From positions 5,729,299 through 5,793,298 of the forward strand of contig NC_057751.1 in the NCBI RefSeq assembly GCF_004010195.1: DNA of 64,000 nucleotides, read 5' to 3'. This DNA comes from Chiloscyllium plagiosum. Lineage: Eukaryota. The notes beneath the pieces were generated by a model. That model was not told the origin of the DNA, searched no databases, and saw only the letters and a list, made by a program, of their open reading frames with translations. This document shows, piece after piece, positions 635-11,479 of the stretch; position 1 is the first letter of the stretch; every line of letters starts with the position of its first letter. Both the position numbers and the translations under genes were made by a program.

Positions 635-843
635 CCTGATCCTGGCCTCGGTGAGGTTTGTCCACACTGCTATTTCTTCCCGGGTGGACATGTCTGGGTA
701 GCGGTTCCTCTGGAAAGTCGCCTCCAGTTCCTGCAGCTGTTGGCTGGTAAAGTGAGTCCTCTGCCTCCGCTGTTTCTTTTTAGCCGAACTGTCTTCGGAA
801 CCCGAGTCGTCGGACTTACATCGCCGAAGCTGCTCGCTCTCTC
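635..843 (-). CDS. pitx: Pitx-family paired-like homeobox gene, internal exon encoding homeodomain residues 1-46 (final exon lies outside the window)
   Basis: Translates (G)[69 protein letters not shown], the Pitx homeodomain. Acceptor is a pyrimidine tract plus CAG at 846-844. Donor AGG|GTAAAT at 635/634 falls between homeodomain residues 46 and 47, the conserved PRD-class intron position. Paralogue not resolved. Confidence 0.96.
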
Positions 844-2944
844 CTGCCGGGGTGGGGTAAGCAACACAACAGACGGAATGAAAAATTACTGTCCCTTTCT
901 CACTGCGCCGCGACACAAACTTCCTCAGGCCAGAACAAGGGCGAAATTATCACTGACTGGGACATATCTTTCACATTCTTCCAACCTCTTCAAGGCCTAC
1001 AATTTTACCTCGTCACTGATATTTGACTTTTTGGAAAAAATATCATTGTCTACAAGGTTGGAAACTCGCTTCTATATTTTTTCCCTCGATATTTGCAGAC
1101 AGCTCGTTTATTAAGTATTAAACACTGTATAAGACGTGCAATTTATGACTCAGATTACAACCTTCGTTTCGACAAATACATTTAAAGGACGTCGCCATTG
1201 CTGCACAGATTTTCGATATTGGCACCAATGATTTGCTCACCTTTGGTGGCAAACGGTAACATGGATCAGCACACAAAAGAAATAAATGTTTAATAAACTT
1301 CGGCCGGTCTTCTGGCGTATATTTTCTTAAAAGGTTAAAAACAACACAGAAACACTTTTTTTGTTGATAATCACAGAATAATCGGCACTGGTGGCGTTTC
1401 CGAGGCCGCTTCCCGAGAATATTTCGATTTGGAAAACGTGTAAAGTTTTACATTTCCCCTCTCTCTTTTATTTATATTTGCAAATCTTGCAATGAACCCA
1501 GAGTATGGTCTGCTCGGTTTCTGAAAAATAACCCCCGTACCTTCTCAACATCGAGTAATCCATAGCAAGGGACACTGAGTAAAACCAAGAGTAAAATATT
1601 GCTTTTTTAAACGCGTGGTTTTTCAAAAGTGGTATCTTGTTGATGAAAGCCGTTTCATGTTTGGTAATTTGGAAGGGGTAATTTGACATGATCAGTCTAA
1701 CTTATTAATTCAAATATTTATATTTATGTTAAGACTGCTGCAATGTATAAACTCCGGTCCGTCTTTTCAAATTACCTGAATATGAGAAGTGTTACTGTTC
1801 ACAGACGGGCTACTGCGTCTAATAGTGTCTGCCTTCGCTTCTTGCACACTGAAAATTCTCCCTGATTTTGTCACCTGGACGCTTTGGAAGGGCGAGCACG
1901 AGTGTGTGTTACTTTAACTCGAAAGTTATTGAGGTTAATCATTGTATCGGAAGTATTGCAACGTTCGCGTGGCGGCATTGTCAGGTTGTATCGCCATGAG
2001 TGTCGGGAGTTGACATGATCAGATCTGTGAGGAGCCCGTACCGAAATGACATTGTTGGCAATTTCTCTCATCTACACGCCGGCGCCAGTTTGAAAAAAAT
2101 ACTGTTCGTGTGCCTTGTAAAATGTTATTTTGTCACTCTAGCACTTCCCATAATTTTCGAATGTGTTTCGACTGTGTTTTTAAACAACGTACAGCTAGGG
2201 TTAGTATATTCTAACTGGAGCCAGAACTTGTGCCAAAGGTTACCGTTAATGTGGCCGCAGCTTTTAATTATCTCGAGACTTGAATTCATATCTTTAAACT
2301 AAGATTATGGTTGTATCTTGTGACTCGGGCTTAATTCATTCTCACAAGACGTAGCGCATTGAAATCACAGCAAGTTATTGATAGACAGGGTTACCCTGAT
2401 TGTGACCAGGGTGTGTTTCTGATGTGTTTGTTGTGAAAATCATTCAAATTAATTGCAAAATAATCGAGGAACTGCCCCGGAGTGCAGTCAAACCGTTGTT
2501 TAAATGGCTATTTCGTGGATGTGCCAACTTTATGTTTCTGGTGAATGAACAGAGTTTACGACTTGGGATTTAAATGTGCAGTACTTCCCGTGGGTGTAAA
2601 TATTGTTGGCTCCCAAACCAAAAGGAATTAACTCCAAACAGCGACCCCGTCGTCCCCGCTTCCGCCCCAACCACCACCCCCTCCCGTCCAACCACACAAT
2701 TAATTTCACGACTCAGGTTAATTTAGAATATATATTTTCCAAATCAATCCGTTCGTTCAAGTTCGGAGAAGCTGCAGAATGGGAGCAGCCGAGTCAATGG
2801 ATTCCGAAGCACTGTGTCAACAGTTTCTAATGGCGTCGGTATCCTTGCGAAATTTCAAACAAGGAATTCAGCGTTTAAAATTCGGCAATTTGGCAAAAGG
2901 ACAGTTGAAACTTGGGCACTTGTTAGGTCTCTCCCCAATCTTAC

Positions 2945-3116
2945 CTCCACTCTCACTGTTCGGCGTCCCGGCTAAATGCCTGATCCCGAAAGTACTATGA
3001 TTTCCAGATGATGAGTTTTGCAAAGACTTCAGAGATGTCGCTGCCATTGCTGTCCCCGCACCAGTTTCAATCAGGGGCAAAGATTCCGATCAAAAAGCAG
3101 GCTTCAAATGGTCCAT
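2945..3116 (-). CDS. pitx: Candidate proximal alternative first coding exon of the Pitx gene (Pitx1/Pitx2c-like position)
   Basis: Reads MDHLKPAF*SESLPLIETGAGTAMAATSLKSLQNSSSGNHSTFGIRHLAGTPNSESG, then GGA G|GTAAG donor at 2945/2944. Phase 1 joins in frame to the exon at 843 (G|GA). In-frame TGA at 3092-3090; a second in-frame ATG at 3047 has good context (gcaATGG). Confidence 0.7.
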
Positions 3117-8655: not shown

Positions 8656-8779
8656 CGCACTTTTCCTGATGGCTGGAACAGTTGACCGTCCTCGAACCCG
8701 TCGCTCCTCCTGAACTGCTCAGCTTCTGCGTTGGACATCCTGAGTCGGTAAGTTCAACTGTGCCAAATGCAAATTCCAT
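8656..8779 (-). CDS. pitx: Candidate distal alternative coding exon of the Pitx gene (exon 8794-8656, ATG at 8779)
   Basis: Acceptor TTTGCAG| at 8795/8794, ATG 15 nt inside. Encodes MEFAFGTVELTDSGCPTQKLSSSGGATGSRTVNCSSHQEKC, then TGC G|GTAAG donor at 8656/8655; phase 1, in frame with exon 843. The MEF start recalls Pitx3 and VELTDS recalls VEFTDS of the Pitx2b exon (from memory). Confidence 0.72.
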
Positions 8780-11479
8780 TCGAAGAAGTTGATCCTGCAA
8801 ACAGTACAGAGCAGTGTTAAAAGTGGCGAGAACATAAGCAGCTGGTGTGACACAGCTCACGGTGACACGAATAATTTCTCTGGACAAATTATAGATAATA
8901 TGTCATTATTTATATTGTTTTCATTCTATTTGTATTATGCATATATAAATATTAGCACAAATAATATACGCATAAAATATGTTGACTGTTCTGTCACCAA
9001 TACCAGTTAAATGTCTCGAAATATTCACACGCGTCCATATCTTGTTCTGGTGTGAACTGGTGCGATCGTAATAAACGACACTTGCACGATGCTCCATATC
9101 GAAGAAATTCGATTGTTTGCAAGTGTGTACCGGCTCCGAAAATATCTGCTCTAATTCGCAGCCCTGCTCAAAGACATAACCTCAGACTTGAGAACAACTC
9201 ACACATCATCAGGATACTGTCAGAATGTGACCTCACTGCTGCACGCTGTGGGATTTGCCTGGCTGATAGTTTATGTTTTCGGATTGGTAATATTTTAACT
9301 GAGAAGGTCGGCAACCACAACTGCGCACACAAGGCAAGGTCTCTCTCGTTCCTGCGTTGTAAATCTTCTTTATTGGAATGACTACAGCAACAAATCAGCG
9401 TCACATTTCCTGCAAGACCAGTAGCTACCTGCCAGTTAATGTCAGTCAGAAAACAGCTATTCCGCCTTTGCTGTTATGTATACATCGAAGGCGAACGCAT
9501 GTCTACAATTTTGCAGAAAGCCACGGTCCAGCTAAGTTTTTGACTGAGCCATGAGCACCAATGCTGGCACCTGTCTGTTTGTCGGCTTCCCAATTCAATG
9601 TGTATTTTACACAATCCTGCTAAATGGTAACATTCCACGCTGCTTATTGACCGATTGGCATCGCTTAACAGTTTCCTTATCTAAACTCGAAAGAGGGAGT
9701 CTTGTCAAATAAGAGTTACCAGGAGGAAGTTTCGGACAACTTTTGAAACCGTGTTCTTTTTGCAAGATGTGAGCACCGCCGGCACCGTGGAAGGGGTCAT
9801 TGTCAACATAGATGTCCTCCAACTCCCCCCACCACCCCCAACCCACCCCCACGACTCGCACCCCGTCGAGTTTAACAACATTGAATCGGCGGGACATGAA
9901 GTGTTAACTAAATCGAGGACCCAAGTGGTTCAGCGAAATTACCAAGTACAGTACAATAGGGGGAATAAGTCAGGCCAGCAGTTTCTGTTTCATTTCCCTC
10001 GGAATGCCTGTCCAGCCAGTCGCCCGATTGTAGACTTTCAATGTGGGGGCCCACGTTAAGGGCCAGAGAAACAGGAGTCCCTCTACACTTGCACGCAGGT
10101 CAGCACTTTCGCCTCGTGCTCAATTCAGTCAGAGATTGTCTTGGAGACCCCATTCTCAGCAAGGAATCACCACATTCCGCAGAGAAGGAGGACAGCAAAT
10201 TTGAACATGCACAATTGTTTTGAAAAAGTATTTTGTTGTTCAAACACCCCCGTTCAAGCTTTTCGGTTTCGCGCTGCAATAAATACCGAGAGAGAATGTA
10301 ATTTACCTGTATCAACCCGACCCCACAACTGAATCAGTAGAACTGTATAATCTGAACCTTTTGTTTTAACATGCAAAGACTTGCAACGTTATAATGTAAT
10401 TTCAAAGAAAAATGCCTTTTAAAGGCGTGTATCAATTATTAAAGTCACATTTGCTGTCGGGATGACTTCTGACGCAGGTTGGGTTTCTACAATATAAGAC
10501 CCTGTATATTTACCAGATGATTGGACTAGTTAGCAAACAGAAAAGGTGGAGACCTGAATGGGGAGGGGACTGAAAGACACATTTGCATCGCGCATCAGAA
10601 TTAATTTTGAGGATTTGACTTGATTAAGATGTCTGTCAGTTCGCAATTCAGAAAACTCATTATGGGACTTGGAGCCAAGAGGCTATTGCTAGGCCAGATG
10701 GAATTACTGTTCAATGTTTGCAGATGATAATTTGTGCTTTCAGCCCCGGATTTGCATATATGGCATCTGTCAAGTGCCTTTCTCCCTCATTTAAAAATAA
10801 CTTTGAACTGCCACCGTGTTTCCTAATAAGGGGGTCGAGGATATATTACCAGCTTCCTTTCATTTTCAAGTCACATTGGTTGCATAGAGCAGCATGAATA
10901 TTAATGAAGCTGATGAAGTCGTCCCATGTCAATACTTCTGAATTCGTGTCGAACAACTACCGTAACCTTTTTGTTTTGCGACGGTGCCCCACACACTAAT
11001 GGGACGGTTGTCGAAAAAACTGTTCTTTCTCCTCAGAAGGAGCAATGAGGGACCCAGGCTTTATCTCATCCAGAATGCACAGGTCTTTGGCAGGGGCTGG
11101 GTTTGGTGGTGATGACTTGCAGAGGTCATTGAAAATATGATGAATCTATTTGTTTTCAGCTGTGTATATCTGCACCATCCGCCTTCACACTTATGTAAAG
11201 TGAGCAACGGTGAATTCGATTGAAATAGTACCATTTGGGAAAATACAGGGAAAAAAACACTTGGAAATATCCCATCCAAATTCGTGTTACCCAGCGATGA
11301 AAATTTCTTACTAAAGAAATGAAAGGGATTTTCGATCACCGAAATGTAAATATTAATTACAGAATTTTTGTTTTGTTCTTCTTCGCTGCAGACGAACGTC
11401 TCCCCAACTGAGAAAGAATCTGAGAGTTCATGTGAAATTCCTGGTGGCAGACTCTGCTCCCTCTCTGTGAGTTCACAAT

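Follow-up and report, generated by a model that had tools for sequence, protein, structure and literature searches.

A probable fourth whole-genome-duplication paralogue of Pitx in Chiloscyllium plagiosum

Is there a Pitx gene in vertebrates beyond Pitx1, Pitx2 and Pitx3? The question is raised by a 64,000-nucleotide stretch of the Chiloscyllium plagiosum genome (hereafter the window; contig NC_057751.1, positions 5,729,299 to 5,793,298 of the forward strand, assembly GCF_004010195.1). Its minus strand carries a Pitx gene of which the 5' two-thirds are present, the last exon lying beyond the window. An initial annotation could not fit this gene cleanly to any of the three known paralogues and took it for an additional product of genome duplication. 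The analysis presented here sustains that proposal. With a probability of about 0.9, the gene is the fourth whole-genome-duplication Pitx paralogue ('Pitx4'), dating from the two genome duplications early in vertebrate history. The evidence consists of coexisting Pitx1, Pitx2 and Pitx3 loci, the phylogeny and the chromosome position of the skate orthologue. 'Pitx4' would be the beta-subgenome partner of Pitx3, located on a segment resembling chicken chromosome 22. Three exons are present in the window:

8794-8656, minus strand: exon A, the distal first coding exon (AG acceptor, ATG at 8779, 124 coding nucleotides, phase-1 GT donor)
2945..3334, minus strand: exon B, the proximal first exon (coding part 3047-2945, 103 nucleotides, ATG at 3047, phase-1 GT donor; 5' untranslated region reaching to at least 3334)
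843-635, minus strand: exon C, encoding the pre-homeodomain segment and homeodomain residues 1-46 with I45 (209 nucleotides, AG acceptor, GT donor)

Protein identity and coexisting Pitx loci

Exon C joined to exon A or to exon B gives open frames of 111 and 104 amino acids, respectively. The former matches the C. plagiosum protein P0140 (0/111 mismatches) and the latter the N-terminus of P0132 (0/104 mismatches). A GT donor at 634 directly follows homeodomain codon 46, so the Pitx-type intron between codons 46 and 47 is present. The pre-homeodomain segment and the I45 pointed out in the initial annotation are both encoded by exon C. Over residues 2-46, I45 is the sole difference from the solved PITX2 homeodomain, which has V at this position, and the substitution is expected to be conservative. 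The rest of the homeodomain (residues 47-60) and the OAR motif precede position 1 and were read from database proteins only. P0140 carries Lys at homeodomain position 50 and an OAR motif (PF03826) scoring 26.4 bits against a cut-off of 20.1. The coelacanth protein scores 21.5, and among reptile orthologues the motif has decayed, five of the six tested (P0271, P0395, P0400, P0405, P0406, P0409) falling below the cut-off. As a K50 paired-type homeodomain factor, the protein would, from family knowledge, bind TAATCC-type sites and regulate transcription.

When exon C was used as query, the best seven of the 120 matches listed (575 in total) were chondrichthyan proteins named 'pituitary homeobox 3-like', with 88-100% identity. 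Seven such 'pitx3-like' clusters comprise 34 proteins from 20 named chondrichthyan species, including sharks, rays and a chimaera. Three diagnostic columns, namely I45, H just past the homeodomain and S or T in place of P, characterize all 12 rows of the group and none of the 25 Pitx1, Pitx2 and Pitx3 rows. In Scyliorhinus canicula, S. torazame and Cetorhinus, named Pitx1, Pitx2 and Pitx3 occur together with the fourth gene, each on a different contig; in S. canicula the four contigs measure 244, 277, 30.8 and 24.9 Mb. Separate Pitx3 genes were found in catsharks, skates, the basking shark, Mobula, Mustelus and Hemitrygon, a separate Pitx1 in C. plagiosum and a separate Pitx2 in C. punctatum. 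The expectation that distinct Pitx1, Pitx2 and Pitx3 genes stand alongside this one is thus borne out in catsharks and the basking shark; for Chiloscyllium, no Pitx3 was identified by name among the cluster members listed.

These data bear on the simplest alternative, that the gene is a plain shark Pitx3, as the label 'pitx3-like' implies. Pitx3 proteins are indeed the nearest relatives outside the group in the tree, and there is a resemblance between exon A and the Pitx3 first exon. In catshark, skate and basking shark the alternative is nevertheless refuted, because two loci coexist there, the separate Pitx3 being on another chromosome. That separate shark Pitx3 has V45 and is devoid of the diagnostic residues of the group, and the reading is considered extremely improbable. 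The 'Pitx4' gene shares with vertebrate Pitx3 its position as nearest paralogue, a homologous first coding exon, approximately 78-81% identity from the homeodomain to the C-terminus and the KKKQRR entry into the homeodomain. It differs in its separate locus on another chromosome (skate, catshark), in I45 and the two further residues, and in its OAR score, which is 34.5 bits in Pitx3. With Pitx2 and its a/b and c isoforms it has in common a choice of two first coding exons, each joined in phase 1 to the same homeodomain exon, and 79% core identity, whereas the first exons align weakly and the chromosome is different. The isoforms of Pitx2 arise from two promoters, according to the accessible part of PMC2330153.

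Phylogeny, first exons and distribution

For the trees, the N-termini were excluded, each protein entering from a point shortly ahead of the homeodomain and running through to its C-terminus; P0140 stood in for the window. The main tree, calculated under LG+C20 PMSF (posterior mean site frequency), contains 43 rows, after removal of 22 (bowfin, Ciona and near-duplicates) from 65. Sharks, rays, chimaera, coelacanth, turtles and squamates form one clade in it with support of 99/99, divided into chondrichthyans versus coelacanth plus reptiles. This clade groups with Pitx3 at 98/96, and the gene lies outside both the Pitx1 and the Pitx2 clades. In a quick 65-row tree, the clade and Pitx3 are joined at 94 and Pitx3 itself is recovered at 86. 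A monophyletic Pitx3 that excludes the clade is not rejected by the approximately unbiased (AU) test (p 0.55; log-likelihood 0.86 above the free tree). As the clade and Pitx3 each contain chondrichthyan and bony-vertebrate members, the duplication is older than the split between sharks and bony vertebrates. A phylogeny including chondrichthyan and bony-vertebrate Pitx proteins therefore assigns the gene to its own clade, which groups with Pitx3 and lies outside Pitx1 and Pitx2, in agreement with the initial annotation.

The first exons complement the trees. Exon A aligned best with the first coding exon of shark Pitx3, with a score of 54 that exceeded 300 of 300 shuffles. Exon B, located outside the tree columns, scored 68 against coelacanth and 51-52 against two lizards, and also aligned with chimaera, in all cases above 300 of 300 shuffles; no score above 33 was obtained against Pitx1, Pitx2 or Pitx3 rows. 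It encodes an LAGTP..ESG motif that is also present in the coelacanth and lizard orthologues. The initial annotation found both N-terminal exons different from those of Pitx1, Pitx2 and Pitx3; they are nonetheless not without kin among the known genes, exon A being a homologue of the shark Pitx3 first exon. In Pitx3 isoforms of catshark and skate (P0211, P0219), a further first exon of the proximal type was observed. The skate exon scored 29 against exon B, a value reached by 3 of 300 shuffles, and this faint likeness suggests that the common ancestor of Pitx3 and 'Pitx4' had two promoters.

Cartilaginous fish are not the only vertebrates with the gene. Its retention there, proposed in the initial annotation, is confirmed, and the restriction to that group is not, since it also occurs in coelacanth, turtles and squamates and possibly in bowfin. 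The coelacanth 'pitx3-like' protein (XP_006012459) has I45, His just past the homeodomain and the exon B motif. A search of a 50%-identity library yielded further divergent proteins and was the source of a turtle query. The best 21 of the 120 matches listed for this query (533 in total) were turtles (7) and squamates (14), followed by coelacanth and then three chondrichthyans; among those 120 matches, no bird, crocodilian, mammal, amphibian, lungfish or teleost ranked above these rows. The protein searches turned up no copy in mammals, birds, amphibians or teleosts, where the gene is apparently missing. In the reptiles Emydura, Sceloporus and Tiliqua, it stands beside a named Pitx2 or Pitx3. 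The same library contains divergent Pitx1-like proteins (P0308 and P0291, from Albula and Danionella, and the unnamed P0295), the last of which has I45 independently.

A duplicate of Pitx3 that arose within cartilaginous fish only would be in line with the initial searches, which gave just chondrichthyan close matches. Such a shark-only origin is rejected by the AU test (p=0.004), and exon B and the three diagnostic residues are found in coelacanth and reptiles too. This origin can be given next to no credence.

A very divergent bowfin (Amia ocellicauda) protein (P0321, P0418; XP_066570366) is labelled Pitx3 and has no Pfam OAR match. Two of the three diagnostic residues are present, I45 being the missing one. 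P0418 could not be placed in the trees (support 58-62; branch 1.6-2.1). The bowfin protein is possibly a ray-finned fish survivor of the fourth Pitx gene. Alternatively, the shark gene could be the fourth ohnologue while the reptile and bowfin proteins are unrelated fast duplicates pulled towards it by long-branch attraction. The lengths of the reptile and bowfin branches and the fall in support when bowfin is added speak for this explanation. Against it, the exon B motif and the pre-homeodomain segment, which are common to reptiles, shark and coelacanth, are largely outside the tree columns, a mixture model was used, and the turtle protein finds coelacanth and chondrichthyans as its best non-reptile matches. 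An artefact of this kind is held to be very improbable, and a single 'Pitx4' lineage shared by sharks, coelacanth and reptiles is preferred.

Chromosome position and flanking DNA

The gene 'Pitx2-2' of the skate (LE07165; the Pitx gene at 7.88 Mb of Leri_35C; PMC10115646) is almost certainly the orthologue. In the available parts of that publication, 'Pitx2-2' is an automatic label of the supplementary tables, and the five mentions of Pitx in the main text concern Pitx1. The skate orthologue is on a contig of 15,576,883 bp, which is the exact end of Leri_35C, and skate Pitx3 on one of 19,860,700 bp, the exact end of Leri_34C. The portion of the supplement consulted has Pitx-labelled genes on Leri_1C, 11C, 34C and 35C, and the paper describes the copies of linkage group I/Q as LER34 (1alpha), LER35 (=GGA22; 1beta), LER1 (2alpha) and LER11 (=GGA13; 2beta), the 2alpha assignment carrying question marks of its authors (PMC10115646). 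With Pitx genes on all four I/Q segments, the fourth gene fills the sole empty slot of the quartet, and the pairing of 1alpha with 1beta agrees with the pairing to Pitx3 in the tree. The comparison of flanking synteny thus put the skate orthologue on the chicken-22-like fourth I/Q copy, and did so for skate alone.

This position weighs on a further rival, by which Pitx3 was duplicated on a small scale, or transposed, in the stem of the jawed vertebrates with no genome doubling involved. The short internal branch between the clade and Pitx3 and the weak monophyly of Pitx3 would be compatible with such an event. The skate copy lies, however, exactly on the predicted fourth I/Q segment, and the 1alpha/1beta pairing matches the tree. 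A small-scale event has accordingly been given a very low probability, and the origin of 'Pitx4' by genome duplication is retained.

The neighbours on Leri_35C include, in a partial list, Gfpt1 (7.73 Mb), Antxr1 (7.53 Mb), Lzts1, Eif4ebp1 and Loxl2. Their human counterparts are located at 2p13/8p. In the part of the gene table covered, the 8.0-8.5 Mb bin beside the skate gene has no gene model, which would fit the gene-free upstream DNA of the window if the orientation corresponds.

The neighbourhood of mammalian PITX3 comprises GBF1 and ELOVL3. The initial annotation had remarked that no GBF1-like coding sequence lies upstream of the shark gene. None of the 302 unmasked stop-to-stop frames of at least 45 amino acids between 9.2 and 64 kb reached a Pfam cut-off, five giving weak sub-threshold matches, and the long upstream frames tested were retroelement pieces or had no match. 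No Pfam-level host gene was thus found in 55 kb; as a test for GBF1 this is weak, because short exons can be missed and GBF1 was never searched for directly. Gbf1 and Elovl3 had no match in the examined part of the skate gene table. The missing GBF1 is a poor argument on its own.

Several observations weigh against a fourth ohnologue or reduce the reach of the evidence. Pitx3 is monophyletic in only 26% of the bootstrap trees of the 43-row analysis. In the 65-row quick tree, support for the clade is just 62 with bowfin and 54 without it, and the reptile branch is long (0.39). The AU test rejects neither Pitx2 (p 0.099) nor Pitx1 (p 0.147) as the grouping partner of the clade, and for this reason the tree alone is no proof of sisterhood with Pitx3. 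I45 occurs also in the divergent unnamed protein P0295 and is thus not diagnostic by itself. Synteny concerns the skate orthologue only, the window having no flanking gene, and no Chiloscyllium Pitx3 is found among the 15 listed of 36 cluster members. Finally, the apparent losses are deduced from absence in protein searches alone and are not proven.

Promoters, expression and significance

From the pair of first exons, the gene would have two promoters, the distal serving the Pitx3-like first exon and the proximal serving exon B. Further features of the window are:

844..2944, minus strand: intron between exon B and exon C (2101 nucleotides, GT-AG; joint 842/2944 in the run X15 contig)
3116-3090, minus strand: short upstream open reading frame (uORF), ATG at 3116 and eight codons followed by TGA, in the frame of exon B and 23 codons before its start
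3415..3562, minus strand: three CCAAT-type boxes 5' of exon B from a motif scan, a putative proximal promoter
1..13000, no strand: CpG-rich, repeat-poor domain over the Pitx gene (CpG observed/expected 0.58-1.14 per kb; mostly 0.14-0.56 further upstream)
7323..7451, no strand: high-copy repeat resembling a short interspersed nuclear element, within the A-B intron (4/4 runs have loose ends and very high read depth here)
13500..64000, no strand: upstream region with fragments of long interspersed nuclear elements (LINEs) and two assembly gaps, in which no host gene was detected

Sequencing reads of four runs were compared over positions 560-9200. The splice from exon B to exon C was seen in one of them, as a single contig of depth 39 with CT..AC ends in X15, which is probably an RNA run from a related organism. 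No splice joint of exon A was seen in the four runs; this exon is supported by matching annotated isoforms, and both first exons are annotated from bamboo shark to chimaera. Run X17 gave unspliced pieces only, and the same-species single-cell run X21, about 2% of which was read, had no reads on the exons and is uninformative. The uORF at 3116 may tune translation of the proximal isoform; among the rows listed, no difference appeared in its stop in runs X15 and X5, both of which cover it. Its ATG was also considered as a relic of an N-terminal extension of the Pitx1/Pitx2c type and rejected, as adding it raised the score against lungfish Pitx2c from 29 to 36 only. A second uORF, out of frame and encoding 17 amino acids, starts at 3283.

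The LINE retrotransposon fragments lie at 13527-15850, 33001-35070, 37671-42446 and 46523-50810 and include one rather long element that has reverse-transcriptase frames and an ORF1-like frame of coiled-coil type. Both assembly gaps (14937-15533 and 46842-47820) are within repeats. Rfam had no match in the window.

Expression data are provided by the skate fin RNA-seq of PMC10115646, in which LE07165 was tied to the Leri_35C gene by its shared label. In the accessible tables, 'Pitx2-2' is expressed in fins (baseMean 571) at a higher level in pectoral than in pelvic fins (log2 fold change +1.16), as is the Leri_34C gene (+1.56), while Pitx1 shows the opposite (-1.40). Along the pectoral axis its bias is strong (-6.7) and has the same sign as those of the Leri_1C (-9.5) and Leri_34C (-6.4) genes. 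The direction of this axis is uncertain, since Alx4, Pax9 and Hoxa2 suggest that negative values are anterior, yet Hand2 is negative too. The supplement also contains a fifth skate entry (LE14333), labelled 'Pitx3', which consists of a homeodomain only and whose change along the fin runs the other way. From these data, it is an even call whether the territories of 'Pitx4' overlap those of Pitx2 and Pitx3, with partial redundancy with both. Such redundancy would explain the faster evolution and longer branches, the weakening of the reptile OAR motif and the apparent repeated loss.

Database labels that present the gene as Pitx3 or as a copy of Pitx2 are mislabellings of the fourth gene. A case in which this may matter is tooth renewal in the catshark, where 'pitx3' was reported as the strongest marker of the successional lamina in a preprint whose transcripts were annotated by best UniProt match, with identity then checked by gene tree (bioRxiv 10.1101/2025.08.26.672487; both points from the available part). 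An earlier result for ScPitx3 in teeth was negative in the accessible text of PMC4690397. As the catshark has both Pitx3 (XP_038638951) and the fourth gene (XP_038641515), each study may have targeted a different one of the two. That the 'pitx3' probe was the fourth gene, which would account for the conflict, is conceivable, and the balance is tilted against it.

No description of a fourth Pitx gene was found among the papers listed in searches of the open literature, which does not cover subscription journals. Extra Pitx paralogues may have been mentioned before, under names such as 'Pitx5/Pitx6'. In the parts available, PMC3296468 treats rates in Pitx3 and PMC10208646 an enhancer of Pitx1. 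The gene has probably not yet been described in print, with some room for doubt. The widest version of the proposal is unlikely to hold in every part. It combines an undescribed 'Pitx4' in sharks, chimaera, coelacanth, turtles, squamates and perhaps bowfin with several independent losses, a developmental role of its own and the attribution to it of some shark 'pitx3' expression.

Pdx2 is among the cryptic ohnologues, a class to which the present gene would also belong. Like Bmp16 (PMC6395752) and Pax10 (PMC4122933), which belong to other gene families, it is a cryptic ohnologue of the two rounds of duplication that is absent from models of the mouse, chick and zebrafish type, evolves faster and is patchily retained in sharks, coelacanth and reptiles, as far as the accessible portions of those papers describe.

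The vertebrate Pitx family is usually counted as three members. A fourth ohnologue would complete the Pitx quartet on four paralogous chromosomes and add a cryptic member of the Bmp16 and Pax10 type, as well as a clean example of the repeated loss of beta-subgenome copies. In shark, skate, lizard, snake and turtle data, transcripts named 'pitx3-like' or 'pitx2-like' have perhaps been credited to the wrong gene.

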